From Clostridia bacterium (lineage in GTDB: Bacteria > Bacillota > Clostridia > Christensenellales > CAG-138), in the NCBI GenBank assembly GCA_017435905.1, contig JAFSEB010000046.1, forward strand, positions 1,186 to 65,185: a stretch of DNA of 64,000 bases, written 5' to 3'. Shown in pieces: positions 1-34,396 of the stretch. A program made the position numbers and the translations under genes. A model generated the notes under the pieces. The model made no database searches, had not been told where the DNA came from, and saw only the letters and a list, made by a program, of their open reading frames with translations. Each line of letters opens with the position of its first letter. Position 1 is the stretch's first letter.

Positions 1-1780
1 CGTTGTCACCGGTGAGCATGACGACCTTGATGCCCATCTTCTGGAGTTCACGCACAGCGCGGGGGCTGTCTTCCTTGATAACGTCAGCAACAGCGATGAT
101 ACCTTCGAGCTTGTCGTCCTTTGCGAAGAACAGCGGGGTCTTGCCCTGCTCGGCGAGCTTCTCGGAAGCGGCCTTGATCTCGGCGGGAACGGGGGTCTTG
201 GTGCTGATGTACTTGTAGTTACCGCCGTTGAGCACGGAGCCGTTCCACTTTGCGGTAAGACCGTTGCCGGGCAGCGCCTGGAAGTCATCCACGGGATCGG
301 CGGTCATGCCGAGCTCGTCAGCCTTCTTCAGGATGGCACGGGCAAGGGGATGTTCGCTCTTGCTTTCAAGTGCAAAGGCCATCTTGAGGAGATCGTTCTC
401 CTTGACGCCCTTGGCGGGGATGATATCGGTGACCTTGGGTTCGCCGCTGGTGATGGTACCGGTCTTATCGAGGGCTACGATATCGACCTTACCGGTCTCT
501 TCGAGGGAGACAGCGGTCTTGAAGAGGATACCGTTCTTGGCGCCCATGCCGTTACCGACCATGATGGCAACAGGGGTAGCAAGACCGAGTGCGCAGGGGC
601 AGCTGATAACGAGAACGGAGATGCCGCGTGCAAGGGCAAAACCGAAGGTCTCGCCGAGGATGAGCCACACGATGGTGGTCACAACGGCAATGGAGATAAC
701 GACAGGAACGAACACGCCGGAAACCTTATCGGCAACCTTTGCGATGGGAGCCTTGGTGGCGGCAGCGTCGCTGACCATCTGGATGATCTGGGAGAGAGTG
801 GTGTCTTCGCCGACGCGGGTAGCCTGGCACTTAATGAAGCCGGACTGGTTGAGCGTAGCGGCGCTGACCTGGTCGCCTTCGGCCTTATCCACAGGGATGG
901 ATTCGCCGGTGAGGGCGGCTTCGTTCACAGCGCTGTGGCCTTCGATGACAACGCCGTCAACGGGGATGTTTTCGCCGGGGCGGACTACGAAGATGTCGCC
1001 CTTGATGACCTGATCGATGCCGACGGTCATCTCTTCGCCGTCACGGATGACGTTGGCGGTCTTGGGAGCGAGCTTCATGAGGCTCTTAAGAGCATCGGTG
1101 GTACGGCCCTTGGAACGGGCTTCGAGCATCTTACCGACGGTGATGAGGGTGAGGATCATCGCGGCGGCTTCGAAATAAAGGTCATGCAGGTAGGCGTGCT
1201 TGTCGGCAAACTCGGTAGCAGCGGTCATGGCGAACACGCAGTAGGTGGAGTACACGAACGCCGCAGAGGAACCGAGGGCGATCAGAGTATCCATGTTGGG
1301 TGCGCCGTGGAGCAGCGTCTTGAAACCGGAAGTGAAGAACTTCTGGTTGATGATCATAACGATGATCGCAAGGAGCATTTCGGTAAGGCCCAGTGCGATG
1401 GGGTTCTTGTCAAAGAAAGCGGGAACCGGGAAGCCCCACATCTTGGAACCCATGGAGAAATACATCAGGACGAGAAGGAAGCCAAGGGAGGTCCAAAGGC
1501 GCTTCTTGAGCTTCGGGGTCTCGGTATCCTTGAGGGCATCCTCGTTGGCGGCGGCGCTCGGAGCACCTGCAGCGGGGCCAGCGCCCTTTTCGGTAGCACC
1601 ATAGCCGGCCGCAGTAACGGCGGCGATGACGTCGGACGGGTTGGCGCTGCCTTCCACGCCCATGGAGTTAGTCAGCAGGCTGACGGAGCAGGACGTGACG
1701 CCGGGAACCTTATTCACGGCTTTTTCGACCCTGGCAACGCAAGCGGCACAGCTCATGCCAGTGACATTGTATTGCTTCAT
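1..1780 (-). CDS. copA: Copper-translocating P-type ATPase, N-terminal ~593 aa. The C-terminus lies beyond the window start
   Basis: Absent from the supplied ORF track because it runs off the edge. Reverse-strand translation from the ATG at 1780-1778 gives MKQYNVTGMSCAACVARVEKAV (GMSCAAC metal-binding domain). Further on come SCPCALGLATP (CPC motif) and DKTGTIT. GGAGG RBS at 1794-1798. Lies directly downstream of csoR. Confidence 0.9.
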   Translation of the reverse strand, partial: MKQYNVTGMSCAACVARVEKAVNKVPGVTSCSVSLLTNSMGVEGSANPSDVIAAVTAAGYGATEKGAGPAAGAPSAAANEDALKDTETPKLKKRLWTSLGFLLVLMYFSMGSKMWGFPVPAFFDKNPIALGLTEMLLAIIVMIINQKFFTSGFKTLLHGAPNMDTLIALGSSAAFVYSTYCVFAMTAATEFADKHAYLHDLYFEAAAMILTLITVGKMLEARSKGRTTDALKSLMKLAPKTANVIRDGEEMTVGIDQVIKGDIFVVRPGENIPVDGVVIEGHSAVNEAALTGESIPVDKAEGDQVSAATLNQSGFIKCQATRVGEDTTLSQIIQMVSDAAATKAPIAKVADKVSGVFVPVVISIAVVTTIVWLILGETFGFALARGISVLVISCPCALGLATPVAIMVGNGMGAKNGILFKTAVSLEETGKVDIVALDKTGTITSGEPKVTDIIPAKGVKENDLLKMAFALESKSEHPLARAILKKADELGMTADPVDDFQALPGNGLTAKWNGSVLNGGNYKYISTKTPVPAEIKAASEKLAEQGKTPLFFAKDDKLEGIIAVADVIKEDSPRAVRELQKMGIKVVMLTGDN

Positions 1781-1825: not shown

Positions 1826-2134
1826 TTATTTCATAAGTTTCTGAAGAGTTGCTGTCAGTTCATCGATGACCTCATCTTTTCCTTCCCTGATGTCGTGCAC
1901 TACACAGGTGTGGATGTGATTGGTCAGCAATTCCCTGTTGAACGCATTGATCGCTGCGGTAACAGCGGCAGACTGCATCAGAATATCGGTGCAGTAAGCA
2001 TCACGTTCAAGCATCCCTTTGATGCCTCGGATCTGTCCTTCAATTCGGTTCAGCCGGTTTACCAGCTTTTTATACTCCGCCTCAGACCGTTCCTTGGTCT
2101 TATGGGAGCAGCAACCCCCTTCACGTTTCGCCAT
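1826..2134 (-). CDS. csoR: CsoR-family copper-sensing transcriptional repressor
   Basis: MAKREGGCCSHKTKERSEAEYKKLVNRLNRIEGQIRGIKGML...YCTDILMQ...HIHTC carries the CsoR C-H-C ligand pattern. Start taken at MAKREGG inside ORF 1826..2167. Confidence 0.85.
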   Translation of the reverse strand: MAKREGGCCSHKTKERSEAEYKKLVNRLNRIEGQIRGIKGMLERDAYCTDILMQSAAVTAAINAFNRELLTNHIHTCVVHDIREGKDEVIDELTATLQKLMK

Positions 2135-2197
2135 AGAAGTACTTCCTTTCAAAAAACATGCATGCAATTAACTGATATCAGAAGTGTACGTCTATAT

Positions 2198-2225
2198 GTT
2201 ATACCCCGTATAGGTATCATGTCAA
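2198..2225 (-). promoter_or_regulatory. csoR-copA promoter with an embedded CsoR operator (box D, 2201-2217)
   Basis: Minus strand reads TTGACA-tg-ATACCTATACGGGGTAT-AACAT. The -35 TTGACA is at 2225-2220 and the -10 TATAAC at 2203-2198 (16-nt spacer). ATACCC-N5-AGGTAT pseudo-palindrome at 2201-2217. Confidence 0.7.
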
Positions 2226-2359: not shown

Positions 2360-3562
2360 TTACTCTGCCGTGCAGCGAAGAGCGCCGCCGCCAAAGTAGT
2401 ACGCATCAATGCCATCCTTGCTGAGTGCGTGGAGCGCAGCTTCATCAAAGGTATCGGCAATGAAGATCTTTGCCGCTTCAATGGCAATTTTTGCACAGGA
2501 TGCATCCTCCGAAAAAGCGATCAGCTCCGGCAGTGCGCATTTGGGAAGCCCGCTGCGGGCATCGATATACGGCGGAAGGCAGGAACCGTCCTCCCTGACG
2601 AAATAATACCCAAGTTCGGCGCTTTCCGCAGGATAATCACGCAGCTGCACAACGCTGATGCGCCCTGTAAGGGGAAGTGTTTCAAGCAGGAACACGCCTT
2701 CTTCGCCCCTGTGCAGGAAGGGCACGGCGGTAACGGCTTCGTCCGCATCACGCAGCTGGCGGACAAATCCGTCCTCGCTGATGAGCGAACCGTTGACATA
2801 ACCCTTTGCTGTCAGTTCATCCGCAATATAATCGATGATAAAGGCGTTGTTCAGCCAGAAAAAATCCAGGAAGCGGTCGAAGTCATTTTCTTCCGCAAAG
2901 CGAAGATATGCATCCGAAACATGAAGCACAATCATGTTTCCGTCAAGAAATTCCAGTGATACGGCACCGGGATCGGCGGCATAGGCTGCCGCTTCGGCGA
3001 AAAATGTTTTCAGCGCTTCATTTCGGTACGGATCGTATTCCGCCGCTTCCGGTTCCTCGGAAAGGAACAGGGAACGGTACAACCCGTATACCGGCGCAAG
3101 ATAGTGGTATCTGACGCCTGCATCCTCCAGCAGCATCAGCGCACCGTAAAGGGCAGGATCGACTTCGATCACTTCGTTGACATGTGCGTTGATGTAGCAG
3201 AGGTTTTTATGATCCTCATACTCCGCTTCCGCATTGAAGATGCGGTATGCGGCAATGCACGATTCGCTGTAAAGCTTTGTCAGGGCTTTCTTTTCCTCGG
3301 TGGCGGAGGTCTCCCCCGCCCCGAGGTCATAGACAAAGCTGAAATCGTCACCGCAGGTCATCTCTCCCCCATCGGATACGGTGATCTCCATCACCCCCGG
3401 TTCCGTTGTCAGCAGGGCGTTAAGCCCATACCCAAAGGAACCGACGGCGACGATGAGCGCAACTACCAGGAGGGCGATCCTGAGTTTGATCCGCCCTTCC
3501 GGTATTTCGATATGGGTGACCCGCTCGATGAGGGGCCTGTCGTTTGCAAGCGGCCTCTTCAT
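2360..3562 (-). CDS. Membrane-anchored hypothetical protein with distant ApbE (FAD:protein FMN transferase)-like sequence pattern
   Basis: N-terminal TM helix (IALLVVALIVAVGSFGYGL). By-eye resemblance to ApbE blocks: YLAPVYGLY, LDFFWLNNAFIIDYIADELTAKGY, GYYFVREDGSCLPPYIDARSGLP. The ATG at 3562 lies 2 nt after the upstream stop. The longer TTG start at 3583 is less likely. Confidence 0.6.
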   Translation of the reverse strand: MKRPLANDRPLIERVTHIEIPEGRIKLRIALLVVALIVAVGSFGYGLNALLTTEPGVMEITVSDGGEMTCGDDFSFVYDLGAGETSATEEKKALTKLYSESCIAAYRIFNAEAEYEDHKNLCYINAHVNEVIEVDPALYGALMLLEDAGVRYHYLAPVYGLYRSLFLSEEPEAAEYDPYRNEALKTFFAEAAAYAADPGAVSLEFLDGNMIVLHVSDAYLRFAEENDFDRFLDFFWLNNAFIIDYIADELTAKGYVNGSLISEDGFVRQLRDADEAVTAVPFLHRGEEGVFLLETLPLTGRISVVQLRDYPAESAELGYYFVREDGSCLPPYIDARSGLPKCALPELIAFSEDASCAKIAIEAAKIFIADTFDEAALHALSKDGIDAYYFGGGALRCTAE

Positions 3563-3563
3563 C

Positions 3564-4880
3564 TTAGAACGCAGCGGATGCAAGCAGCAGCAGGAACACG
3601 ATGATCAGCAGCAGGATGCACCCGAAGGAAGCGATGAAGCCCTTTCTGCATGCCTTGAAATTGCGGATGTAGTTCTTCTTGCGGAAGATGATCGCCGCAA
3701 TGATGCCGATGATGGGCAGCAGGAAGGAAAGGATCACATAGATGGCGCTGCCGGTATCGTGGATGGGTCTGTCAAGGATGACCTCGCTGGTGGCAAGGTT
3801 CTCTTCTTCCACATCCTCATCCGGAGCTTCCGTGTTCACGCCGATGATGGAAAGGGTCTTGAGCGGCACATTGCGCTCACGGATCTTCTTATACTCGGCG
3901 ATCTCCTCTTCGCTGCCGTACACATAGTGGTCATGACCGATGAGCGTGAGCTCCGGCTCTTTTCCGTTGCTGTAATCGTGCTGGGAAGGATCGTAGGTGA
4001 AAAGCGCCTTGTGCTTTTCAAGCTTGGGATCCGGCAGCGGAATGGCGGAAATGAGCGCACGGGTGTAGGGGTGCAGCGGGTAGTTGAACAGCTCTTCCGA
4101 GGTGGCGATCTCCACGATCTTACCTTTGTAGATAACGCCGATGCGGTCGGAAATGTAACGCACGATGGAAAGGTCGTGGGCAATGAACAGGTAGGTGGTG
4201 TTGCGCTCCTCCTTGAACTTGTTCATCAGGTTGAGGATCTGCGCGCGGATGGATACATCAAGTGCGCTGATGGGCTCGTCCGCCACAACAAATTCCGGTT
4301 CCATGACCATGGCCCTTGCAAGGCCGACACGCTGGCGCTGGCCGCCGGAAAACTCATGGGGATAGCGGGTCAGGTGCTCGGGCAGCAGACCGACATCCTC
4401 GATGATCTTTTCCACCTTGCGGACACGGTCGGTGTCGTCTTCATAAAGATGGAAGTTGTAAAGGCCTTCGGAAATGATGTATTCCACGGTGGCACGCTCG
4501 TTAAGGGAGGCGGCAGGATCCTGGAATACCATCTGGATGTTCCTGACCACTTCACGGTCCAGCGAATGAGGGATCTTGCCGGAAATGCGCACGCCCTTAT
4601 ACTGGATCTCGCCCTTGGAGCAGGTGTTGGCACGGATCACCGCACGGCCGATGGTGGTCTTACCGGAGCCGGATTCGCCCACGAGGGAGAACGTTTCGCC
4701 CTTGTAGATATCAAAGGAAGCATCCTTGACCGCACGGACGATGTTATCGCCCTTGCCGAAGTTGATATCCACATTTTTCACGGAAAGAAGGATCTCTTTT
4801 CCGTTCTCGGCGATGGGCCCATGCTCGGGGAAATGGCCGGTTCTGATCTCCGAAACCTTATTGTTTTTCTCTTTTCCCAT
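3564..4880 (-). CDS. Opp/Dpp-family ABC ATPase (OppF-like) with a ~100-aa C-terminal extension ending in a 2-TM hairpin
   Basis: Walker [18 protein letters not shown] signature and [12 protein letters not shown] oligopeptide C-terminal motif, then the tail ...[25 protein letters not shown]...[23 protein letters not shown] at 4880 is preceded by AGGTGA. Confidence 0.85.
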
Positions 4881-4890
4881 AGCAGTCACC

Positions 4891-6639
4891 TTAAATATTG
4901 AATACTTTTCTCAGGGTACCGTGGATATCGCGGATGATCTCAGGCTTTTCGATCTTCGGTGCCCGGGGGTCAAGCAGCCAGGTCTTGGCATAATGCGTAT
5001 CGGATACCTTGAACATGGGCGGTTCTTCCAGCGTATCCACCGTGAGGCAGTAAGGATTGCGGGGGGCAAAGGCATCGCCCTTGATCCTGTTGTACAGGGA
5101 GGGCGGCGTGCCGCCGATGGAGTAAAGCTTCATACCGCGGTCCATCAGCTGCGGCAAGGAGGAAAGCAGCACCCAGGTATAGGGGTGACGGGGATCGTAG
5201 AAGATCTCCTCCGTGGTGCCGACCTCGATGATCTGGCCCGCATACAGCACCGCAACACGGTCTGCCACGTTGGCAACAACGCCAAGGTCGTGGGTGATGA
5301 ACACGATGGTATACTTGAATTCCTTCTGCAGATCCTTGATGAGCTTCAGGATCTGTGCCTGAATGGTCACGTCAAGAGCCGTGGTGGGCTCGTCGCAGAT
5401 GAGGATCTTCGGATGGCAGGAAAGCGCAATGGCGATAACGATACGCTGGCGCATGCCGCCCGAATACTGGAAGGGATAATCGTCAAAACGCATCTCCGCA
5501 TTGGGGATGCCCACCTTCTTCATCAGCACGATGGCACGCTTCTTCGCTTCCACCTCGGAAACGTTCTGGTGCTTCATGATGACGGAGGTGATCTGGTGGC
5601 CGATGGTCAGGATCGGGTTCAGGGACGTCATCGGATCCTGGAAGATGGTGGCGATCTTGCGGCCGCGGATCTCTGCCCAGTTGGCAACGCAGGAGGTCTT
5701 TGCCACATTCAGTACGGAGGAACCGTAGAGCTTGTTGTTCTTGCCCTGATCGTAGCGCACACGGAACATGACGTTTTCAAAGACGCCGTTGCGCTGCTTT
5801 TCATCGTTCAGATCCACGCCGATGGTGAGAGCGGTCTTCATGCACTTCATGAGCTTGCGCATGAGCGGCGCCCACTTTGCGGAGGGATAGCGGTACAGGG
5901 AAAGATACACTTCCTTGGCAATGACAGCGTTGCGCTTCTTGGTCTCTTCGCTGATCTCGCCGGCGCACTCGGTCCTGTACTGTGCCTTGAGGGCTGCCAT
6001 CTTTTCCGCATATGCCTTGTTGTAGGCCGCATCGTTCTTGGTTTTCGCAGTGTGATCTTTGACAAGTGCCTTGCGCTCGGCGTCAAGCGCCTTGATCTTG
6101 CGGTCGCACTCATCGATCTCCGCCTGCGCCTCGCGGATCATGCCTTTTTCCGTGCGGCGGTCATAAGCCTGCTTGCGGTTGAAAGCTTCCGTGCGGCGGT
6201 AAACGAGTTCCTTACGGGTGGTTTCAAATTTGGTCTGCTCTGCCTCGTCAAGGGTCAGGCGCTCCTGCTTTTCCTTTTCAAGGGCACGCATGGCCTGATA
6301 GGTCTTGGCGCCAAGCTCCAGCTTGGAATACTCGTTGAGCTTCTTTTCCGCCTGTGCCATGATCTTCTCCGCAAGGGAGTGCACGGGGGCAACGGTCTCG
6401 GTGAATTCGTCATCGTTGAAGATGATGTCACCCTGATCGATAAAGCCGTTGTTATCCAGCATGCCGGCAAAGGTCTTGGTAAGAACGGATTTGCCGCAGC
6501 CGGATTCGCCCACGATGGCGATGGATTCGTTTTCGTAAATATCCAGCGATACGCCGCGGATGGCGGTCAGGATCCTGCCGCGCACACGGAAGCGGACGTA
6601 AAGATCGCGGATGGAGAGCAATACTTTCTTTTCTTCCAT
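4891..6639 (-). CDS. Opp/Dpp-family ABC ATPase (OppD-like) carrying a ~240-aa charged insertion
   Basis: Walker [40 protein letters not shown]. Residues ~79-320 are a K/E/A/R-rich segment absent from the paralog at 48743-49804. AGGGAGGG RBS. Confidence 0.9.
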
Positions 6640-6653
6640 TTAAAAGCCCTCCC

Positions 6654-7643
6654 TTACAGCATGTGGGTACGGGGGTCGGCAGCGTCGCCAAGGCTCTGGC
6701 CCACGAGGAACAGAACGATGGAGATGAAGGCCGACAGCATAACGGGGCACCAGAATTCCCAGCCCCAGCCGGGGGTGACCATGGCAGGCTGTGCGTTGTA
6801 AACGAGCTTACCGAGGGTGGTATCGGAAATACCGAGGCCGATGTAGCTGAGGAACGCTTCGGAGCCGATGTAGCCCGGCAGGGAGTTCGCCATCATGGTC
6901 ACGATGAAGGAGATCATGAAGGGCAGGATGTTCTTCGTTGCAATGCGCAGCGTTGAGGTACCGAGGCACTTGGAAGCAAGGTTGTATTCACGGTCACGGA
7001 TAATGATGACCTGCGTACGGATGGAGTAGGCGATACCGATCCAGCCGGTAACACACATGGCGAACACGAGCGTTGCAAAGTTCGGGGAGAATACAAGAAC
7101 GAGAACGGAGGTAACGAGGGTGCCGGGAACGTTGGCAATGACGTTGCGGATCTCGTTCATGATGATATCCACTTTCTTTGAGAAGCCCCACAGCGCACCG
7201 ATCATGATACCGATGGAGAAGTTGATGATGGTGCAGAGGATCGCAAGAGAGATGGAGATACGGGAGCCGTACCACAGCGCATCGAAGGTGGACTGGCCGG
7301 ATTCGCCGGTGCCGAAGATCCATTTAATATGGAAGCCATACTTTTCGATCGCCGCTGCGGGGGTCAGGTGCTTCGAGAGGGGATCCATGATGTTCTCAAA
7401 CTTGTCATAGCCGGTGAAGGTGGGATAGATGTAGGTGAACACAAGGATCAGCACCATCATGGCAATGACAAGGATGTTGGACTTCTTGGAGAAGAACACG
7501 CGGCCTACGCTGCGCCAGTAGGAATAACGGGGCGCAACGATCTTTTCCACCGCCGCCGCATCCTGCGGCGCCCTTTGGAAGAGCTGTTCATCCGTCAAGC
7601 CGGTATGCGCAAGATCAAAAAGCTTTTCTTTTGTTTCTGTCAT
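6654..7643 (-). CDS. Opp/Dpp-family ABC permease (OppC-like)
   Basis: Typical OppC layout (RYSYWRSVGRVFF N-terminus, multiple TM helices, EAFLSYIGLGI block). ATG at 7643 is preceded by AGGTGA. The GTG at 7652 overlaps the upstream stop. Confidence 0.85.
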   Translation of the reverse strand: MTETKEKLFDLAHTGLTDEQLFQRAPQDAAAVEKIVAPRYSYWRSVGRVFFSKKSNILVIAMMVLILVFTYIYPTFTGYDKFENIMDPLSKHLTPAAAIEKYGFHIKWIFGTGESGQSTFDALWYGSRISISLAILCTIINFSIGIMIGALWGFSKKVDIIMNEIRNVIANVPGTLVTSVLVLVFSPNFATLVFAMCVTGWIGIAYSIRTQVIIIRDREYNLASKCLGTSTLRIATKNILPFMISFIVTMMANSLPGYIGSEAFLSYIGLGISDTTLGKLVYNAQPAMVTPGWGWEFWCPVMLSAFISIVLFLVGQSLGDAADPRTHML

Positions 7644-7648
7644 CTTGA

Positions 7649-9220
7649 TCACCTTGCCTTAGTCGTAAAGGAGATACGCGGGTCCATAATGGCCATCGTG
7701 ATGTCGCCGAGAACGGCGGAAATGATGGACAGTACGCCGTAGAACAGCGCAACGCCGACGATCACCTGGTTGTCATAGGCACCGATCGCTTCCACAAGGA
7801 GGCCGCCGACGCCGGGGATGGTGTAGATACGTTCCATCATGATGGAGCCGGACAGCGCCATGATGATGGTGTTGGGGAGACCGTGGGTGATCGGGATCGC
7901 CGCATTCTTGAAGATGTGCTTTGCGAAGATCTCAAACTCGCTCAGGCCCTCTGCACGGGCGAACTTCACGTAATCGGAGTTCATCTGGTCCACCATGTAG
8001 CGGCGCATCCACTTCATGGTACCGGCAACGGAGCTTGCAAGGCTTGCCACCACCGGCGTGATGTACATCAGCACCGTGGGGTTGTCCAGCGAGAAGATGA
8101 CCGGCAGGCCGATCTTCACCGCCACCGCCTTGAACATGAAGTAGTACGCAAGGGACGGCACGGCGATCATGAAGATCACGTATGCGTTGCCGAGGTTGTC
8201 CACCCAGGTATCCTTCTTCTTCGCCATCAGGATGCCGAGGGGCAGGCCGAGGAGGTAGGTAAAGAAGGATGCAAGGATACTGATGATAAAGGAATAGAAG
8301 ATCTTGGACTTGCTGTCCTTATGGAGGTTGATGTTGGTGTAATCATCCGTATAACGGTCGGCAAGAACAAGGTTCAGCTCACGGGAACCGGGAGCATATA
8401 TTGCGCTGTGCAGGTCATCCGCACTTTCCGCCACAAGACCCGTGGGGTAATAGGTGGTGGTAGGCACGTAGGTACCCTGCCGCTGTGTCATCGTCTGGAA
8501 TACATCCACGCCCTTGTTGACGCTGAAGGATGTACCAAGCGTAAGTTTCACGAAGTTCTGGTGTACATAGGGGAAGTACTGATCGAAATAAAGGAGATAC
8601 TTATGCAGCGTGCCGTTACCGAGAATGGCCGGGGAGAATTTCTCGCCGCCGTAAGCAGGGTCATACCAGGTAAAGGTCAGGCCGCGCTCGCCGATGTCCT
8701 CTTCCACATAGTTGATGTCGTCAAAGGTGAGAAGGCTCGAAAAGAAATCCCATACCCTCTCGTGCACCGGCGTATTGATGTAGGCAAACAGCATAGCTGC
8801 GCCGCCCGTTGCAATGCGCTTGGAGTTTGCCATAACGGCATCAAGGCGTTTGACGGTATAGCCGTTTTCTTCGCAGTAATCCAAATACTGCTGGATGTAA
8901 GGCTTTGCAGCCTCGGGATCCTGTTCTGCAGTCCTGCCGATAGAAGCGATGGTGGACTTGAATTCCTCATCCATTTCGCCCTTTGCAACAAGCTCGTTCA
9001 GGTAATCGTTATAGGAGATAAGGTCAAGATAGCCGTATTTCTCCCAGGTAGTATACATGTAGCTGATCTTCTGGTTGTTAGCCAGCTTTGCATACTGTTC
9101 ATCTTCCGAGAAGATGAGCGTATTATCCATCGCATAGAACAGAAGAACCATGATGATGGAGACCGCGATCACCACGGATACACAGCCGCGGCCAACGCGT
9201 TTAAAAAAATACTTTAACAT
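7649..9220 (-). CDS. Opp/Dpp-family ABC permease (OppB-like) with an enlarged first extracytoplasmic loop (523 aa)
   Basis: MLKYFFKRV N-terminus, then TM1, then a ~270-aa loop before TM2, then the conserved permease core (YVKFARAEGLSEFEIFAKHIFKNA, IDPRI C-terminus). AGGGAGAA RBS. Confidence 0.85.
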   Translation of the reverse strand: MLKYFFKRVGRGCVSVVIAVSIIMVLLFYAMDNTLIFSEDEQYAKLANNQKISYMYTTWEKYGYLDLISYNDYLNELVAKGEMDEEFKSTIASIGRTAEQDPEAAKPYIQQYLDYCEENGYTVKRLDAVMANSKRIATGGAAMLFAYINTPVHERVWDFFSSLLTFDDINYVEEDIGERGLTFTWYDPAYGGEKFSPAILGNGTLHKYLLYFDQYFPYVHQNFVKLTLGTSFSVNKGVDVFQTMTQRQGTYVPTTTYYPTGLVAESADDLHSAIYAPGSRELNLVLADRYTDDYTNINLHKDSKSKIFYSFIISILASFFTYLLGLPLGILMAKKKDTWVDNLGNAYVIFMIAVPSLAYYFMFKAVAVKIGLPVIFSLDNPTVLMYITPVVASLASSVAGTMKWMRRYMVDQMNSDYVKFARAEGLSEFEIFAKHIFKNAAIPITHGLPNTIIMALSGSIMMERIYTIPGVGGLLVEAIGAYDNQVIVGVALFYGVLSIISAVLGDITMAIMDPRISFTTKAR

Positions 9221-9241
9221 ATTTCTTTCTCCCTTTTTTGA

Positions 9242-9269
9242 CAGGGCAGGGGGCGAACCCCCTGCCCTG
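9242..9269. other. GC-rich stem-loop in the oppA1-oppB1 spacer
   Basis: CAGGGCAGGGGG-cgaa-CCCCCTGCCCTG, a 12-bp perfect stem. No U-tract follows it in the sense (minus) orientation. Confidence 0.6.
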
Positions 9270-9317
9270 CAAGTTTGCCTCTAAGGTTTTGTTTGAAGCG
9301 TGCGCTTCAGCCGGTTA

Positions 9318-11528
9318 TTACCAGAGACCCATCTTGGGAGTCAGATAACCGTCGCCGTAGGGCAGGAGCGCTTCGGTGTAGCACTGCGGATCGCCGTGGT
9401 CGGAACCGATGGCGCCGAGGCCGCCCATGTCGGTGTTGTGCTCAGCACCGCAGGTGGTGTTGTTCTGTACATTGAGGAACTCGGTGGCGTTGTTCAGCGG
9501 GATCAGGTCGAAGCGGACGCAGTCGCCAAGAGCAGCTTCGATGCAGGTCTTGAGGACGTAGGCCTGGTTTTGACCGGTCTCATTGTAGCCAACGTGCGGA
9601 TAGTCGATGACGATCGGGTTGTCAGGGCTGACTTCAAAGCCAATGGTCTTCAGGTCTTCGATGGCAAGAGCCAGTTCCTGAGCGGCGAGTTCCGGATTGT
9701 ACCAGCCATCCCAACCGTCGGTGGAGAGGTTGGCTTCGTCCCAAACAACTACGGGGAACTCATCGGCGGTCAGCTGAGCCTGCACGATCTCACCGTACCA
9801 GGTGCCGGCGGGGAAGGTAGTGGCTTCACCGTTGATGTCGATGGTCACTTCTTCTGCCAGGGAAGCATAGGTGCCGGGAGTCATGGTGTTGCGGATGCTG
9901 ACAGACTTCAGATCCTCACCAACGCTCTGGGAGATGTAGGAAGCACGGTCGATGGCGAAGTTCAGAGCAAGACGGAAGTGCCTGTTCTGGAACGCAGCGC
10001 AGCTGAGCTCCTTCTCGGCATCGGTCTTCATGGAAGCGCCGGCGCCGTCAGCCATGTTGGCGTAGGTCTGGCGATGGAGGTTGAACCAGAAGAGGAAGGT
10101 CGCACGGCCGGTCTCGGAAGTGGTGGCATACTTTTCAAAGTCGCCGTTGGCCTTTGCGGTCTCGATCTGGGCAGCGCGGAGATACATGTAGGTGGTCAGA
10201 CCGTTCATGAAGTTGTCATAAGCGCGGGAAACGTCGCTGCCATCATCATAAACGAGGCTGAAGTTCTTGAGGGTAACGTTGGCAGCATTCCAGTAGCTCT
10301 CGTTGAGCACGTAGTTGACGGAGTTCTTCTCGGTCATGTTGGTGCAGAGGAACTGGCCGCTGTAGGGGATATGGTTCTGGTCGATACCGTAGGTGTAGCT
10401 GGAGGAAGCAGCAGCTTCGGAATACTCAGCAACGCCGAACGCACCGCCCTGGGAGAGGAAGTAGCTGCGGCAGAGGGGCAGGAAGTCGATGGACTGCCAC
10501 ATGGAATCGAAATAGGTGCAGGGGGTGTTGAGGGTGTACTGGAGGGTGAGGTCATCAAGCGCCTTGACGCCGACGGTGGAGAAGTCGGTGGTCTCACCGG
10601 TGAGGTAAGCAGTCATGCCCGCAACGTAGCTGCCGAGGGTGTAGGCATCCTGAAGGTCAGCCTGATGCTGTGCAGCGGCTACCCAGTCGTCAGCAACGAT
10701 GTCCGCAACCTTACGGCCCTGAGAGTCGACCCAGACCATACCGGGGCGGATCTTGATGGTGTAGGTGAGGCCATCGGGGGAGATCTCATAGCTCTCCGCA
10801 AGGTGGGGAGTGAGAACGCCTTCGGGATTGTAAACGTAGAGAAAGTCGTAAGAGGGGCCGATCAGCTTGCTGTCGTTGGAGGTGGCAGCAGCGAAGATGT
10901 CCCAGGTGGTGGCGTTGTCAACGAAGGTGTCAACAACGGTGTCGCTGAAGGTGTAGCCCTTGCCGGCAAGGTATTCCTTGACCTTGGTGGCATAGGTGCC
11001 GGTGCCGAGGCACTCGAGGTAGATCTTCTTGGTCTCTGCGTAATCCTCAGCGGTGATGATCTCGTTGGTGAGGATGTAGTCGCAGTAGTTGGTCATGCCG
11101 CCGCGCCAGGGAGCATAACCGCCGCTGCGGTAGACCTGACGGGTCATGATGTAGCCGGCAACGGGGCCGTACATGGGAGCACCGGTGGAAGCCTGAAGAG
11201 CCTTTGCTTCCGCAACGGCGAGGAGGGCATGGCGCTCGGATACGGTCGCAGCTTCCATGGCGGCGTTGTAGTACTCATAGAACTCGCCAAGGTTGGCCAT
11301 GTAGATCTCTTCGTCAGTCTCGTAGATGGCGAAGGGTTCCTCTACCTCTTCAGGCTCTTCGGAAGCTTCGGGTTCGGTGGAGGCTTCGGGAGCGGTGGAG
11401 GTTTCGGGAGCGGTGGAGGTTTCGGGGGCAGTGGAAGCTTCGGGAGCGGTGGTGTTATCGCCGCCGCAAGCGACCAGCAGGGGGAGCATCAGAGCCAGAA
11501 TAAGGGTGATTGCTGCCAGTTTCTTCAT
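9318..11528 (-). CDS. Family-5 (Opp/Dpp-type) extracellular solute-binding lipoprotein, 736 aa
   Basis: Signal peptide plus lipobox LLVAC(21)GG, a PEAST-rich linker, then a large SBP body. First gene of the five-gene transporter operon. AAAGGAG RBS. Confidence 0.85.
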   Translation of the reverse strand: MKKLAAITLILALMLPLLVACGGDNTTAPEASTAPETSTAPETSTAPEASTEPEASEEPEEVEEPFAIYETDEEIYMANLGEFYEYYNAAMEAATVSERHALLAVAEAKALQASTGAPMYGPVAGYIMTRQVYRSGGYAPWRGGMTNYCDYILTNEIITAEDYAETKKIYLECLGTGTYATKVKEYLAGKGYTFSDTVVDTFVDNATTWDIFAAATSNDSKLIGPSYDFLYVYNPEGVLTPHLAESYEISPDGLTYTIKIRPGMVWVDSQGRKVADIVADDWVAAAQHQADLQDAYTLGSYVAGMTAYLTGETTDFSTVGVKALDDLTLQYTLNTPCTYFDSMWQSIDFLPLCRSYFLSQGGAFGVAEYSEAAASSSYTYGIDQNHIPYSGQFLCTNMTEKNSVNYVLNESYWNAANVTLKNFSLVYDDGSDVSRAYDNFMNGLTTYMYLRAAQIETAKANGDFEKYATTSETGRATFLFWFNLHRQTYANMADGAGASMKTDAEKELSCAAFQNRHFRLALNFAIDRASYISQSVGEDLKSVSIRNTMTPGTYASLAEEVTIDINGEATTFPAGTWYGEIVQAQLTADEFPVVVWDEANLSTDGWDGWYNPELAAQELALAIEDLKTIGFEVSPDNPIVIDYPHVGYNETGQNQAYVLKTCIEAALGDCVRFDLIPLNNATEFLNVQNNTTCGAEHNTDMGGLGAIGSDHGDPQCYTEALLPYGDGYLTPKMGLW
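11335..11465 (-). repeat. Tandem ~18-bp coding repeats for the (T/S)APE(A/T)S linker of the SBP
   Basis: Plus strand shows GCTTCGGGAGCGGTGGAGGTTTCGGGAGCGGTGGAGGTTTCGGGGGCAGTGGAAGCTTCGGGAGCGGTGG. The protein reads TAPEASTAPETSTAPETSTAPEASTEPEASEEPEE. Confidence 0.8.
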
Positions 11529-11691
11529 TGACGTTCTCCTTTCGCAATTTGTTTCTTATCATTTCCGCGTGGTTTGGGATTGCGCGGAAACGGCTGCAAT
11601 AATTCGGCAAAGCCGAAATCAAGATCGAATTTGGAAATCGGGCAGAATTGTGAATAAATTCTTAAATTCGAAAAATGCGACGCCCTTCGTA

Positions 11692-11720
11692 TTGACAAAT
11701 ACCCGACGGGGGTATATATT
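11692..11720 (+). promoter_or_regulatory. Consensus-like promoter on the plus strand with an embedded CsoR-type operator (box A, 11699-11715)
   Basis: TTGACA (11692-11697)-a-ATACCCGACGGGGGTAT-ATATT. The -10 is TATATT at 11715-11720 with a 17-nt spacer. Perfect ATACCC-N5-GGGTAT palindrome. Confidence 0.5.
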
Positions 11721-11905
11721 GTGTTTGTCGGGATGGTTGCCGGACAAACAGGCAACCGTTCCATCCTGCCTCACGTTTCAAAAAAACGAAGAAAGCCGCC
11801 TTGCGTTTGCATAACAACATTGGCGAAATCTTTTGCTTCAACAGGATTCACTTCAAATAAACATTTTTATTTATATGCCCATGCGGAACCGCACGGGTAA
11901 AAGAG

Positions 11906-11922
11906 ATACCCAAATAGGGTAT
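11906..11922. promoter_or_regulatory. CsoR-type operator (box B), perfect palindrome
   Basis: ATACCCAAATAGGGTAT. The extended palindrome AGATACCC-aaata-GGGTATCT spans 11904-11924. It lies just downstream of the minus-strand promoter at 11927-11955. Confidence 0.55.
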
Positions 11923-11926
11923 CTAA

Positions 11927-11955
11927 ATGTTATACCCCTTCCGAGTATTTGTCAA
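11927..11955 (-). promoter_or_regulatory. Minus-strand promoter with an embedded CsoR-type operator (box C, 11932-11948). Candidate promoter of the Opp1 operon
   Basis: Minus strand reads TTGACA-a-ATACTCGGAAGGGGTAT-AACAT, the same layout as the csoR promoter, and both share the 12-mer GGGGTATAACAT. It lies 427 nt upstream of the oppA1 ATG. Confidence 0.5.
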
Positions 11956-12242
11956 TAGGCTTTTCACGAAGTTTTTGCTTTTTTGTCGTTTTTTACAATC
12001 AAACGCTGAAAATATTTGCATTGTTCCTGATACACATTACATTTCTTCATGCATGCACCTGTTTTTTCACTTGCATGCATGCTTTTTTTCTGTTGTCCGC
12101 ATGCATTCGCTTTCGCTTCACTTCACTGAAGCCATCCTGAAAAAAGTGCCGAAATCAGCCACCTTTCTTTCGTTCCTGTTTCAGCTTTTGCAGTGTGCGG
12201 GATGCGATGAGCGAAGGGCTGTTTTTTGCCGAACATAAAGAA

Positions 12243-12282
12243 AGCAAATGACCTTTTCTTTTATTTACAAAGGTCATTTGCT
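12243..12282. terminator. Bidirectional rho-independent terminator
   Basis: AGCAAATGACCTTT-12 nt loop-AAAGGTCATTTGCT, a 14-bp stem with an A-run on one side and a T-run on the other. It lies downstream of the minus-strand lipoprotein gene. Confidence 0.75.
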
Positions 12283-12420
12283 TCTTTATTATGGTTTTGC
12301 TAAATTCAGCTTGCTGAAAAGCCGTGCTTTTCGAGGCTGTTTCTTTCCATATATGGGGGGTATATCCGGAATATCCTTGTATTCAGGGCGTTTTCAGACC
12401 CCGTTTTCATATATTGCGCA

Positions 12421-13137
12421 TTATGCCCAGCGTCCGCCCCTGCGTCCGCCCCGGCAGCCGCCGCTGTAGCTTCCGGAATTTTCGCTGTAATCCCAGCTGC
12501 CGCCAACGGCATTTCCGTTTTCATCGGCACCCCAGCAGCCGTACCAGCCGTTGCCGTCCCAGCAGTAGTATTCACCGCTGAAGCAGCCATTCCTGTTGCT
12601 GTTCCAGCAGCCTTCCCAGTTTTCACCGTTCCAGCAGTAGTACGCATCGCCATCCCAGCAGTAATAGTCGCCGTTCCAGCAATAGTACTCCACATCGCTG
12701 CTGCCTTCAAAGGCAGGGATGCCGCCCTCATAGGTAAGGGTGCTGACATAGCTGACAGTCTCTTCCTGCGCTGCGGTGATCTGCGGTGCAGCTGCTGCCG
12801 CAGGCGCTTCGTAGCTTTCTTCCACAGGTGCGGCAGGCACACCGGGATCGGCAGCAGCATCCTGTACGGATGCCGCAAACTGTTCCTGCTGCGCTTCGGC
12901 GGAGGTTTCCCCATCTCCATCGGCCGCATACAGGTTATAATATGCCGCCAGCGCATCAAGATCCTCGACGCCCGTTGCGGCTGCAATTTCCATCACATCA
13001 TTTACATTGACTTTGCTCAGCAATTCCTCACTCACCCCGGGCAGGAGCGCACCCGTTTCGGTGCAGGCAGCCATCATGGGGACCGCCGCCAGGAACAGTG
13101 TGAGTGCCACGATCCGTTTCATCCAATCCCGTTTCAT
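12421..13137 (-). CDS. Cys/Trp/Tyr-rich repeat lipoprotein, hypothetical (no family recognised)
   Basis: MKRDWMKRIVALTLFLAAVPMMAAC lipobox, an acidic Ala/Pro linker, then a C-terminal region with four YYCW(N/D)G repeats plus GCW and GCF variants, ending in a GGCRGGRRGGRWA tail. AAAGGAG RBS before the ATG at 13137. Confidence 0.75.
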   Translation of the reverse strand: MKRDWMKRIVALTLFLAAVPMMAACTETGALLPGVSEELLSKVNVNDVMEIAAATGVEDLDALAAYYNLYAADGDGETSAEAQQEQFAASVQDAAADPGVPAAPVEESYEAPAAAAAPQITAAQEETVSYVSTLTYEGGIPAFEGSSDVEYYCWNGDYYCWDGDAYYCWNGENWEGCWNSNRNGCFSGEYYCWDGNGWYGCWGADENGNAVGGSWDYSENSGSYSGGCRGGRRGGRWA

Positions 13138-13192
13138 TTTTTCTCTCTTTTCTCCTTTCGTTTTTGATCTGCCTTGTTTTGGCATGCCTGAT

Positions 13193-13220
13193 TGTATACC
13201 CCACACAGGTATTTTGTCAA
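13193..13220 (-). promoter_or_regulatory. Promoter of the Cys/Trp-rich lipoprotein gene with an embedded CsoR-type operator (box E, 13196-13212)
   Basis: Minus strand reads TTGACA-aa-ATACCTGTGTGGGGTAT-ACAAT, nearly superimposable on the csoR promoter TTGACA-tg-ATACCTATACGGGGTAT-AACAT. Confidence 0.6.
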
Positions 13221-13479: not shown

Positions 13480-13770
13480 CAATTGGTCATACTATAAAAA
13501 TGCGCAGACGGAATTATGCCCGCATCAGAAGGTCAAGAGAGCCGGCGGCTGCTGTGAGCCGGTCCGGAAGATGCTGCGGCAGCCTCCTTCCCGAGCAGAG
13601 CGCCCCAACAAAACAGTAAGGCGTTCCGGTCGCCCCGTTACAGGCTATAAGCTTGACTGAGCTTTGAATTTGAGTGATCGCCCGTTTGCATTTGGCATGC
13701 AGCGGCGATAATCAGGGTGGTACCGCGATTGATTCGTCCCTGAAGCCGATAACGGCTTCAGGGATTTTTT
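13480..13770 (+). promoter_or_regulatory. T-box riboswitch leader of the ilv-leu operon (candidate Leu CUC specifier)
   Basis: AGAGAG bulge and GCUGUGA distal loop in stem I. F-box-like CCGTTA. Canonical T-box AATCAGGGTGGTACCGCG at 13710-13727 overlaps the terminator stem. CTC at 13584-13586 sits in the predicted specifier loop. Confidence 0.85.
13738..13770 (+). terminator. T-box leader terminator
   Basis: CCCTGAAGCCG-ataa-CGGCTTCAGGG followed by ATTTTTT. Confidence 0.85.
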
Positions 13771-13843: not shown

Positions 13844-15550
13844 ATGCAACTGACTGGCGCAGAGATCCTGATGGAATGCTTGATGGAGCAGGGCGTCGAT
13901 ACCATTTTCGGTTACCCCGGCGGCACCATCCTCAACGTTTACGACGCTCTTTGCAGCTACAAAGGCAGGGTACGCCACATTCTCACATCCCATGAGCAGG
14001 GCGCTGCCCACGCAGCGGACGGTTATGCCCGTTCCACCGGCAAGGTGGGCGTATGCTTCGCCACTTCCGGCCCCGGCTGCACCAACCTGACAACCGGCAT
14101 CGCCACCGCTTATATGGATTCTTCCCCCGTCGTCTTCATCACCTGCAACGTCAGCGAAAACCTGGTGGGCAAGGATTCCTTCCAGGAAGTGGACATCACC
14201 GGCATCACCATGCCCATCACCAAGTGTAATTATATGGTAAAAAGTGCCGATGACATCGCAGACGTGGTGCGGCAGGCCTTTGCCATCGCCCGTGGCGGAC
14301 GCCCCGGCCCCGTCCTCATCGACATCGTGAAAAACGCCACCGCACAGAAGGCGGAATACATCCCCCTTACCCGTGAACAGCACGGCAGCGAAGGCCGCCT
14401 CGGTGCCCTCATCAAGCGTGCTTCCCACGACCTCAAGGCACCCGAACCCAACATGGCGGATGTGAAAAAGCTGGCGGAGATGATCCGCAAAAGCGAAAAG
14501 CCCCTCCTCATCTGCGGCGGCGGTGTGGTGCGAGGCAGGGCGGATAAAGAGCTTCTTGCCTTTGCGGAACGGATCGATTCCCCCGTTTGCGTCACCGTGA
14601 TGGGCGCCGGCGGCTTCAGAGGCAGGAATCCCCTCACCACCGGCATGATCGGCATGCACGGTTCGCAGGCTTCCAACATGGCCTGCGACAGCTGCGATCT
14701 TCTCATCGCCATCGGCTGCCGCTTCTCCGACCGTGTGGCACTTGACCCCGCAAGCTTCGCCAAGCAGGCCCAGATCGTGCAGATCGACATCGACCGTGCG
14801 GAGATCAACAAGAACGTGCAGACAGATCACCACATCATCGGCGATGCGAAGCAGGTGCTGCAGCTGCTCCTTGACGAGCTTGACCAGATGGATCATACCC
14901 CCTGGAAAGATTATGTATTCTCCTTCAAGACGGAGACCGAATACGAAGAAGAAAGCGATACCCTGACACCCAAGCAGATCAGTGATTCCATCGCAAGGCT
15001 GATGCCCGAGGATACCATGGTCGCTACCGATGTGGGCCAGCACCAGATGTGGGTCATCCAGCACTTCCACTACGATTATCCCGGCCAGCTGATGACTTCC
15101 GGTGGTTTTGGCACCATGGGCTTCGGCCTTGGCGCAGCCATCGGCGCAAAGGTGGGCAACCCGGAAAAGACGGTCATCCACATCACCGGCGACGGCAGCT
15201 TCCGCATGAACTGCAACGAGCTTGCCACCGAGGAGCATTACGATATCCCCGTCATCACCTTCATCTTCAACAACAGGACCCTCGGCATGGTGCGCCAGTG
15301 GCAGACGCTCATTTATGACAAGCGCTACAGCGAGACCACCCTTGAACACGGTCCCGATTTCGTGAAGCTTGCCGAGGCATACGGCCTCAGGGGCAGGCAT
15401 GTATGCACCGTGGAACAGCTGGAAGATGCCATCCGTGAGGCGCTTGCGTGGAACCACGGCTTCGTCATCGACTGCGCCATCGAGCAGGACGAGATGGTCC
15501 GCCCCATGGTGAGCGGCGGCAGCCGTATCACCCAGTTCATCATCGACTAA
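13844..15550 (+). CDS. ilvB: Acetolactate synthase large subunit
   Basis: MQLTGAEILMECLMEQGVDTIFGYPGG..., ThDP-enzyme motifs (GDGSFRMN), 568 aa. Confidence 0.95.
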   Translation: MQLTGAEILMECLMEQGVDTIFGYPGGTILNVYDALCSYKGRVRHILTSHEQGAAHAADGYARSTGKVGVCFATSGPGCTNLTTGIATAYMDSSPVVFITCNVSENLVGKDSFQEVDITGITMPITKCNYMVKSADDIADVVRQAFAIARGGRPGPVLIDIVKNATAQKAEYIPLTREQHGSEGRLGALIKRASHDLKAPEPNMADVKKLAEMIRKSEKPLLICGGGVVRGRADKELLAFAERIDSPVCVTVMGAGGFRGRNPLTTGMIGMHGSQASNMACDSCDLLIAIGCRFSDRVALDPASFAKQAQIVQIDIDRAEINKNVQTDHHIIGDAKQVLQLLLDELDQMDHTPWKDYVFSFKTETEYEEESDTLTPKQISDSIARLMPEDTMVATDVGQHQMWVIQHFHYDYPGQLMTSGGFGTMGFGLGAAIGAKVGNPEKTVIHITGDGSFRMNCNELATEEHYDIPVITFIFNNRTLGMVRQWQTLIYDKRYSETTLEHGPDFVKLAEAYGLRGRHVCTVEQLEDAIREALAWNHGFVIDCAIEQDEMVRPMVSGGSRITQFIID

Positions 15551-15565
15551 AGGAGGAAAAGCATT

Positions 15566-17117
<1,552 letters not shown>

Positions 17118-34159: not shown

Positions 34160-34396
34160 AGTTAATGCGATGAACGGGACACACGGCAAACAACCGCCCC
34201 CAAGCGAGCTGCGGCACGGTGAGAGCGCAGCGGGAAACGGGTTCTGCACGCATCCCCCGTGAGTGCGCAGCCGAACTTTTATCAGTAAGCTGCGCCGTGA
34301 GCGCACGTTACAGCGCAAATGGAGCGGGCGGCGTATGCCGTCAATCCGGGTGGTACCGCGCAGCGTCCTGCGTCCCGTTTTGGGACGCAGTTTTTT
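34160..34396 (+). promoter_or_regulatory. T-box riboswitch leader of ileS (candidate Ile AUC specifier)
   Basis: GGUGAGA distal loop, F-box-like CGTTAC, T-box AATCCGGGTGGTACCGCG at 34343-34360. Terminator CTGCGTCCC-gtttt-GGGACGCAG plus TTTTTT at 34368-34396. ATC at 34252-34254 in the predicted specifier loop. Confidence 0.85.

Follow-up and report, generated by a model that had tools for sequence, protein, structure and literature searches.

An extracellular copper sink has been proposed for CopL of Staphylococcus aureus, a surface lipoprotein under the control of CsoR (PMC5947656). In Mycobacterium tuberculosis, a lipoprotein and a metallothionein belong to the RicR regulon along with orphan open reading frames (ORFs) that are specific to the lineage (PMC3944814). 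Here we analysed a stretch of 64,000 nucleotides (nt) from contig JAFSEB010000046.1 (assembly GCA_017435905.1), called the window below and the reference for all coordinates given without a locus label. It encodes a lipoprotein of 238 residues with a short-repeat module rich in Cys, Trp and Tyr, located about 11 kb from csoR and the copper ATPase gene copA in the same strand block. The record names of relatives and of contigs from the same species (XIEF21 ruminant gut metagenomes, RUG and UMGS metagenome-assembled genomes) suggest that the organism belongs to the rumen or gut Clostridia. Our analysis places the lipoprotein gene behind a promoter with the architecture of the csoR promoter, and we give roughly even chances to the reading that its product is a CsoR-repressed, copper-induced extracytoplasmic sink which holds Cu(I) by thiolates.

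The lipoprotein promoter (13191..13220, minus strand) consists of a -35 element TTGACA (13220-13215), an 18-nt spacer and a -10 element TACAAT (13196-13191), and it scored 11 of 12 in a consensus scan. Its spacer is filled by a CsoR-type operator, ATACCTGTGTGGGGTAT (13196..13212, minus strand), a TAC-N9-GTA pseudopalindrome that also overlaps the -10 element. According to the original prediction this promoter, TTGACA-aa-ATACCTGTGTGGGGTAT-ACAAT (13220-13191), is almost superimposable on that of csoR, TTGACA-tg-ATACCTATACGGGGTAT-AACAT (2225-2196), and both indeed read as claimed; in the csoR-copA promoter (2196..2225, minus strand) the operator ATACCTATACGGGGTAT occupies 2201-2217. Beyond these two, we detected two further promoter-operators of the same kind, which brings the total to four. 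One of them, TTGACA-a-ATACTCGGAAGGGGTAT-AACAT (11906..11955, minus strand), precedes the opp operon about 400 nt upstream of oppA and has a second CsoR box just past its -10 element (11906-11922), and the other, TTGACA-a-ATACCCGACGGGGGTAT-ATATT (11692..11720, plus strand), lies within the opp leader on the opposite strand. The sequence ATACCN5GGGGTAT with at most one mismatch gave seven strand matches at five sites in the 64 kb against 0.09 expected, all five sites falling between 2201 and 13212. For the composite TTGACA-N1-2-ATAC-N9-GTAT we counted four copies (13220, 11955 and 2225 on the minus strand, 11692 on the plus strand) against 0.00 expected.

The operator in the window also matches CsoR sites described elsewhere, both the Streptomyces type-2 consensus ATATACCCCTNAGGGGTATAT, in which the TAC-N9-GTA inverted repeat is needed for binding (PMC3902906), and the proposed sites ATACCtataGGGGGTAC (copA) and ATACCctggGTGGGTAT (copX) of S. 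aureus, whose promoter fragments bound CsoR in electrophoretic mobility shift assays (PMC5947656). Moreover, the lipoprotein promoter can be aligned to its counterparts at csoR, at opp and in relatives. In allele L001 one spacer base of the operator differs and a second change lies just upstream, and both half-sites are intact. The window encodes a CsoR of 102 residues (1826..2134, minus strand; Pfam PF02583, 4e-30) with an RLNR (RLxR) motif on helix 1 and the Cu(I) fingerprint Cys48, His73 and Cys77 in a Bacillus subtilis-like spacing. Next to it lies copA (1..1780, minus strand), the gene for a Cu P1B-ATPase whose N-terminal HMA domain contains MxCxxC; the gene is cut by the window edge. Since the lipoprotein operator sits in a position that would block RNA polymerase, in a promoter built like the autoregulated one of csoR, and since copA and a CsoR that bears the Cu(I) fingerprint are both present in the window, regulation of the lipoprotein gene by CsoR is well supported and, in our judgement, very probable.

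The ORF at this position (12421..13206, minus strand) has a 5′ GTG extension which overlaps the promoter. The realistic start codon is the ATG at 13137 (MKRDWMKRIVALTLFLAAVPMMAAC...), which gives the coding sequence 12421..13137 on the minus strand with its stop codon at 12421-12423; in the alleles, gene callers preferred an alternative ATG, the one at 13122. Ahead of the start at 13137 we read a purine-rich stretch resembling a Shine-Dalgarno (SD) sequence, AAGGAGAAAAGAGAG (13143..13157, minus strand). Codon usage favours the annotated frame, with a score similar to the codon adaptation index of 0.60 versus 0.27-0.43 in the other five frames, and the GC content at third codon positions is 0.64. 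An intrinsic terminator (12235..12289, minus strand) with a 21-bp hairpin and a U-rich tract (folding energy -35.6 kcal/mol, z = -5.2) lies 130 nt past the stop codon and is probably bidirectional; an Rfam search of 2 kb around the gene returned nothing but chance hairpin-type matches on this terminator. Because it has its own promoter and its own terminator, the lipoprotein gene constitutes a separate monocistronic unit. Judged by such sequence signals, the view that the gene is real and its product exported and lipid-anchored is supported.

Four parts of the protein can be distinguished, all encoded on the minus strand. Residues 1-25 (13063..13137) form a signal peptide, MKRDWMKR-IVALTLFLAAVPM-MAAC, in which a basic n-region and a hydrophobic core lead to a lipobox with Cys25 (...VPMMAAC), as in bacterial lipoproteins that are substrates of Lgt and LspA. 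The Ala-Ala at positions -2 and -1 is canonical, and the Met at -3, where Leu is usual, fits the relaxed lipobox pattern only; Cys25 would be lipid-modified. It is followed by an acidic tether rich in Ala, Pro and Glu (residues 26-126; 12760..13062; isoelectric point (pI) about 4), which is predicted to be partly helical and then disordered. The repeat core (residues 150-202; 12532..12690) reads EYYCWNG DYYCWDG DAYYCWNG ENWEGCWNSNRNG CFSG EYYCWDG NGWYGCW, and each of its seven Cys directly precedes Trp or Phe, while NG and DG turns join the predicted strands. Both AlphaFold2 models, although of low confidence, place a strand of 4-6 residues on most (Y)YCW-type units (six of the seven core units). 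In the C-terminal tail (residues 203-238; 12424..12531), a degenerate GG(C/S)WDY unit, GGSWDY in the window form, is followed by a basic end, GGCRGGRRGGRWA. The last 93 residues have a pI of about 4 and contain 20 Gly, 11 Tyr, 10 Trp, 10 Asn and 8 Cys, the Cys standing at positions 153, 160, 168, 177, 185, 192, 201 and 228; the mature protein has a single Met and no His. At the DNA level, the repeat CCAGCAGTA(G/A)TA is present in four copies (12559, 12631, 12655 and 12676) against 0.16 expected. The original prediction was accurate in what it states of these features: the lipobox (MMAAC) and the acidic Ala/Pro-rich linker are both there, its counts of 8 Cys and 10 Trp are exact (after residue 145), the four YYCW(N/D)G units occur along with variants of the types GCW, GCF and GCW, and the DNA repeat exists.

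It had also been stated that the protein cannot be assigned to any family, and our searches agree. Scans of the whole protein against Pfam, NCBIfam and PADLOC identified no family, nor did Pfam with the module alone. A word-indexed search of 5.8 billion clusters with the whole protein returned only cluster P0001, which is from the same species, out of a candidate list saturated by low-complexity words, and the same kind of search with the module as query returned no match. An exhaustive HMMER comparison of the C-terminal 112 residues with 1.84 billion representatives at 50% identity recovered P0001 and one other protein, P0002, an Ig-like repeat protein which we rejected as a spurious match. 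No relative of the lipoprotein was found among GTDB species-representative genomes, tblastn against plasmids gave no match, and an exact-sequence look-up found neither the window lipoprotein nor the window OppA on record. P0001 shows 94% identity over the BLAST local alignment, which includes a 14-residue indel, and 98-100% over the ungapped aligned positions.

Contigs of the same species, which were found via identical CsoR and OppB proteins, allowed us to distinguish three allele types. The window form has 8 Cys and Ser214, L045 is of equal length with Cys214 and 9 Cys, and L046 and P0001 have 10 Cys and one extra 14-residue unit, GGCWDYDESTDTYE, due to a 42-nt in-frame indel. The tail carries both the site of this indel and the Ser/Cys214 change. 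Each of the five alleles seen has an intact promoter, SD-like stretch, lipobox, reading frame and terminator; the two to three synonymous and two to four non-synonymous substitutions between alleles are too few for a test of dN/dS.

For a broader comparison we used a set of loci anchored on OppA, comprising three species-representative and 31 metagenome loci with 40-66% OppA identity. CsoR-type boxes precede oppA in nearly all of these loci that have sufficient upstream DNA, and the link between CsoR and opp is therefore conserved across related lineages. Examples are L003 7093-7164, L004 1988-2045, L005 9786-9842 and L020 5689, from relatives with 51-66% OppA identity; in L004 and L005, csoR lies directly upstream of this region. 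The boxes of the L003-, L004- and L005-type groups are embedded in a TTGACA-N-ATACC...GGTAT-AT(T/C/A)AT promoter architecture, and in the L018-type group the box is single and not part of a TTGACA composite.

In a sister lineage, the first gene behind a TTGACA-N-ATACC...GGTAT promoter-operator, upstream of the orthologous oppA, encodes a secreted repeat protein rich in Gly, Tyr, Asn and Cys (L004 2230-2721, L017 5405-5905, L026 359-994 and a fragment, L033 1-138). These proteins have 163-211 residues, are built from a varying number of NGYS, NGFGGCYG and RYGCYGY units, end in GACFN(Y/C)(C/F)Y and are rich in NG, with about 8% Cys and at least 20% aromatic residues. They have no Pfam match, and a profile search of a large protein collection returned nothing, the search being saturated or bias-filtered. 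With the lipoprotein they share the regulatory position, the type of composition, the Cys-aromatic dyad (GGCYG versus YGCWG) and the variable repeat number, whereas they differ in having Tyr for Trp, a signal of the signal-peptidase-I type instead of a lipobox, and no acidic tether. Furthermore, the sister-lineage gene of L004, the locus scanned, has one promoter and no terminator before oppA and is seemingly operonic with opp, unlike the monocistronic lipoprotein gene of the window.

Such a composition is rare in related DNA. We screened 2227 stop-to-stop ORFs of at least 80 residues, from all six frames of 550 kb of related DNA, for an 80-residue stretch containing 6 or more Cys together with 16 or more aromatic residues, and only the lipoprotein (5 alleles), three sister-lineage proteins and one spurious frame passed. 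Thus, two gene sets of rare composition both stand directly behind a CsoR-operator promoter beside orthologous opp operons. We claim no homology between the module and the L004-type proteins: uncorrected tblastn E-values went down to 1e-9, but shuffles that preserve composition gave z of only 0.1-3.2. A shared composition and Cys-aromatic dyad without significant sequence order is what would be expected if composition, and not fold, is selected.

From these data we infer copper induction, free thiols and copper binding for the lipoprotein, and the original hypothesis of a copper-induced extracytoplasmic copper sink or chaperone is partly supported. When copper is scarce, tetramers of apo-CsoR bound within the -35/-10 spacer would block RNA polymerase. 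Upon a rise of cytoplasmic Cu(I), CsoR would bind the metal via Cys48, His73 and Cys77 and leave the DNA, so that production of the lipoprotein would begin along with that of CopA, CopZ and the Opp transporter. The exported protein would be acylated on Cys25, and its acidic tether of about 100 residues would space the module from the membrane. The C-terminal module of about 90 residues is envisaged as a stack of short aromatic beta-hairpins, with (Y)YCW strands and NG/DG turns. Under the reducing conditions of gut or rumen, this module would display free thiolates in a row, each beside a Tyr or Trp, and these would trap Cu(I) on the outer side of the membrane, and probably Ag(I) as well. Trp takes part in Cu(I) binding in CusF. 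Sequestration of this kind would lower copper entry and buffer the copper pumped by CopA, and the protein would act as a surface-tethered, metallothionein-like sponge whose capacity scales with the number of repeats. Support for this reading comes from the Cys-rich analogue of the sister lineage, whose gene likewise follows a CsoR-operator promoter, and allele differences by whole repeats, with 8, 9 or 10 Cys, suit additive ligands.

Several points weigh against a copper sink. The sequence lacks CxC, CxxC and CC as well as Met and His motifs, and it resembles no copper protein. In a simple hairpin register each Cys would face a Tyr of the adjacent strand, so that multi-thiolate sites are not obvious. 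AlphaFold2 models of the full protein and of the module are of low confidence (predicted local distance difference test scores of 39 and 41), and it is through composition and position only that the sister-lineage analogue speaks for a class. Moreover, the gene is confined to one species and therefore cannot be essential to a conserved CsoR response. Finally, the sole likeness to an outside protein, marginal as it is, points to the hairpin of a lectin.

This likeness leads to the alternative that survives best, namely that the module is a glycan- or cell-wall-binding aromatic hairpin repeat, similar to those of lectins or choline-binding proteins, in which the Cys would be structural. The protein would then be a copper-induced adhesin or a factor in envelope remodelling or anchoring; we regard this explanation, in either form, as unlikely. 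Its Trp, Tyr, Asn, Asp and Gly composition is typical of carbohydrate-binding repeats. A Foldseek search of the PDB gave no significant match and is uninformative by itself, its weak hits being led by generic propeller blades (best E = 0.058, TM about 0.3), and the best sequence matches in the PDB, obtained with phmmer, were all to the Ralstonia fucose lectin RSL. They aligned EYYCWDGNGWYG with RCWDGKGWY and WCWDGNGWT around the core motif E-YY-CWDGNGW-Y-G, and Trp76 and Trp81 of this RSL hairpin (equivalent to Trp31 and Trp36) contact fucose (PMC3466270). However, the matches are marginal (E 0.05-0.1) and cover one hairpin of 9 residues. The repeat period is 7-9 residues, as opposed to the blades of about 45 residues in RSL and AAL lectins, and the Arg/Glu partners contributed by a neighbouring blade are absent. 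Among Pfam models, those for RSL/fungal lectins and CW_binding did not match the module even at E = 1, and the repeats of about 20 residues with GW...WYY that characterise choline-binding proteins (CW_binding_1) gave no match at E up to 1. As the match is limited to one hairpin, and neither a blade nor an Arg/Glu partner nor a Pfam match was found, the resemblance is best described as a shared or convergent aromatic hairpin with an NG turn, not as family membership. Glycan binding would also leave unexplained both the CsoR operator and the Cys-rich analogue without Trp.

The proximity of opp suggests a second alternative, to which we assign a slightly lower probability than to glycan binding: the lipoprotein could be a partner of the CsoR-controlled Opp transporter and not a sink, either as an extracellular thiol/redox buffer or as a Cys-rich reservoir or decoy by which OppA-dependent peptide uptake is protected or fed. 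Copper disables amino-acid biosynthesis, which would make peptide uptake useful, CsoR boxes before oppA are kept in three related lineages, the lipoprotein gene lies immediately upstream of the opp promoter in the window, and the L004 analogue is seemingly co-transcribed with oppABCDF. On the other hand, the window gene has a promoter and a strong terminator of its own, no known Opp system requires such a partner, and several relatives (the L003-, L005- and L018-type groups) show the link between CsoR and opp but lack a Cys-rich protein of this kind.

It is improbable, in our view, that the module is a structural repeat stapled by disulfides, the alternative named in the original prediction, in which inter-strand bonds would rigidify a surface module of unrelated function. 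The Cys recur regularly in predicted adjacent beta-strands, and their number is even (8) in the window allele. However, Cys counts of 8, 9 and 10 among alleles, together with the tolerated exchange of Cys214 for Ser, argue against an obligate disulfide topology and fit additive ligands, and a register with two-residue turns pairs Cys with Tyr, not with Cys. In addition, extracytoplasmic thiols tend to stay reduced in a gut or rumen habitat such as the record names indicate. A young ORF generated by slippage, which might have been born from a duplicated CsoR promoter and the 5′ end of a lipoprotein gene and would be expressed with the regulon but dispensable and of little or no adaptive function, would agree with the restriction to one species among 1.8 billion representative proteins, with the repeat-unit polymorphism and with faint hints that the N-terminal half resembles OppA N-termini (best shuffle z of 4.1, for one paralogue, and about 0 for the window OppA), but it is just as improbable, given the intact signals in all five alleles, the in-frame indel, the host-like codon usage and the independent appearance of a compositional analogue at the same regulatory position in another lineage.

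The lipoprotein gene heads a block of genes on one strand that runs from 13220 to 1 and comprises, in this order, the lipoprotein gene, the opp promoter, oppABCDF, an ORF of 407 residues, the csoR promoter and csoR-copA. The genes oppA (9318-11528), oppB, oppC, oppD and oppF (3564..11528, minus strand) encode an Opp-type ABC importer behind the CsoR-operator promoter. In the literature that we searched, we found no description of a copper-controlled peptide importer or of a link between CsoR and Opp; it is tempting to speculate that a CsoR-controlled Opp might offset copper damage to amino-acid biosynthesis or import thiol peptides. The 407-residue ORF (2360-3583, minus strand) encodes a membrane-anchored protein with one N-terminal transmembrane helix and has counterparts at L004 10583-11938 and L037 6572-7774. 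Proteins of this kind, of 400-450 residues and syntenic between oppF and csoR/copA, had no match in Pfam, NCBIfam or PADLOC. On contigs of the same species, copA is full-length (915 residues) and is followed by two copZ genes; in L037, which belongs to the window's species, these are identical tandem genes for 69-residue HMA proteins (11194-11403 and 11470-11679). The plus-strand promoter at 11692 would yield an antisense transcript of about 550 nt across the opp promoter, ending at the hairpin at 12235-12289, in which we found neither a convincing ORF nor an Rfam match. The octamer ATGCATGC is not enriched window-wide (6 copies, 5.9 expected), and five of the six copies cluster beside CsoR-controlled promoters (12049-12106 and 2158-2165), four of them in the 60 nt that precede the opp promoter and the fifth in the 5′ leader of csoR. 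Two T-box leaders reach the Rfam gathering threshold, one at 13496-13744 (plus strand), which is divergent from the lipoprotein gene and precedes ilvB-ilvN-ilvC (13844-17117), and one at 34161-34380 (plus strand).

The related loci hold further features of this kind. L003-type genomes have two to three tandem oppA paralogues (7674-9887, 9983-12199 and from 12304) behind the CsoR-operator promoter. The lipoprotein signal of these paralogues, MK-x-RW-x-K-x-I-x-AL-L-LA, resembles that of the window lipoprotein, but shuffling showed the similarity to be non-significant. Downstream of three CsoR boxes, the L003 opp leader contains a 50-codon ORF with a good AGGAGG ribosome-binding site (7335-7487), which encodes MKRQRIWIPYISGICMPFCGLKQSMHLDGNSCSYGIKSRGNRLNNSSGMC with 5 Cys. 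The same ORF occurs in L006-L010, L013-L015, L032, L035 and L036; its conservation is uninformative because all copies come from near-identical genomes. At L005 4824-6833 (plus strand) we found a gene for a 669-residue fusion protein with an HMA domain, a DsbD_2 membrane domain and a weak cupredoxin-like match, which ends in ...SCCCRGGY; its C-terminal C-R-G-G recalls the GGCRGG tail of the lipoprotein. A CsoR-like box lies at 6931 of L005, just past this gene and 2.3 kb upstream of csoR.

Copper is widely added to feed, is commonly used as an antimicrobial and also serves in host defence, and copper handling by strict anaerobes of gut and rumen has been little studied relative to efflux by CopA and CopZ. 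If the lipoprotein binds Cu(I), it would represent an extracellular, lipid-anchored and metallothionein-like layer of defence of a sequence type that databases fail to recognise, and annotation based on homology would systematically miss such proteins. Its aromatic hairpins with one thiol per strand could be a candidate for a minimal metal-binding scaffold. The locus itself is a compact regulon with four operator-promoters within 13 kb, which ties copper sensing to an Opp-type ABC importer. A more far-reaching idea, which we put forward tentatively and consider rather doubtful, is that gut and rumen Clostridia hold an unrecognised class of extracytoplasmic copper sponges that are defined by composition, not by a conserved fold, and wired to CsoR along with an Opp-type peptide importer. 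Members of this class would consist of short Cys-aromatic hairpin repeats with NG turns (YYCWNG here, GGCYGNG in the sister lineage) and would change by repeat slippage at a rate that homology searches cannot follow. Efflux, surface sequestration and peptide import would then together make up the response of these anaerobes to copper.

Among described systems, the closest in kind are CopL of S. aureus, encoded in the copXL (copBL) operon, and YdhK of B. subtilis, both DUF1541 proteins. Like the window lipoprotein, they are surface lipoproteins of Firmicutes with a CsoR-repressed promoter and a copper P-type ATPase alongside. However, they are folded tandem DUF1541 domains with His and Met ligands and have no sequence relationship to the window lipoprotein, which gave no DUF1541 match in Pfam or NCBIfam at E up to 0.01 and which, in contrast to CopL, has a short-repeat module of Cys, Trp and Tyr on a long acidic tether as well as a promoter and a terminator of its own. 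The RicR regulon (ricR, lpqS, mymT, socAB, mmcO, Rv2963) is similar in that a CsoR-family repressor acts on several promoters sharing one palindromic operator. It belongs to another phylum and has no homologous protein, its metallothionein MymT is cytoplasmic whereas the window protein is exported, and an Opp transporter is part of the CsoR regulon in the window but not of the RicR regulon.

With MymT, SmtA/BmtA and Csp1, the lipoprotein has in common a high Cys density, an acidic character and a presumed Cu(I)-thiolate sequestration, and Csp1 is also exported. Metallothioneins and Csp proteins have CxC, CxxC and CC clusters or a Cys-lined four-helix bundle, whereas the window protein has single Cys every 7-9 residues, predicted beta-strands and no match to these families. 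Among lectins of the RSL/AAL type, RSL carries an almost identical local motif, E-x(1,2)-C-W-D-G-N-G-W-(Y/T)-x-G, in its blade hairpins, but this one hairpin is all that the window protein shares with such lectins, and it does not match their family profile. Overall, the lipoprotein, a member of no known sequence family, appears by analogy to resemble in kind the known copper-induced extracytoplasmic copper-binding lipoproteins, and together with the sister-lineage proteins it may define a class based on composition.

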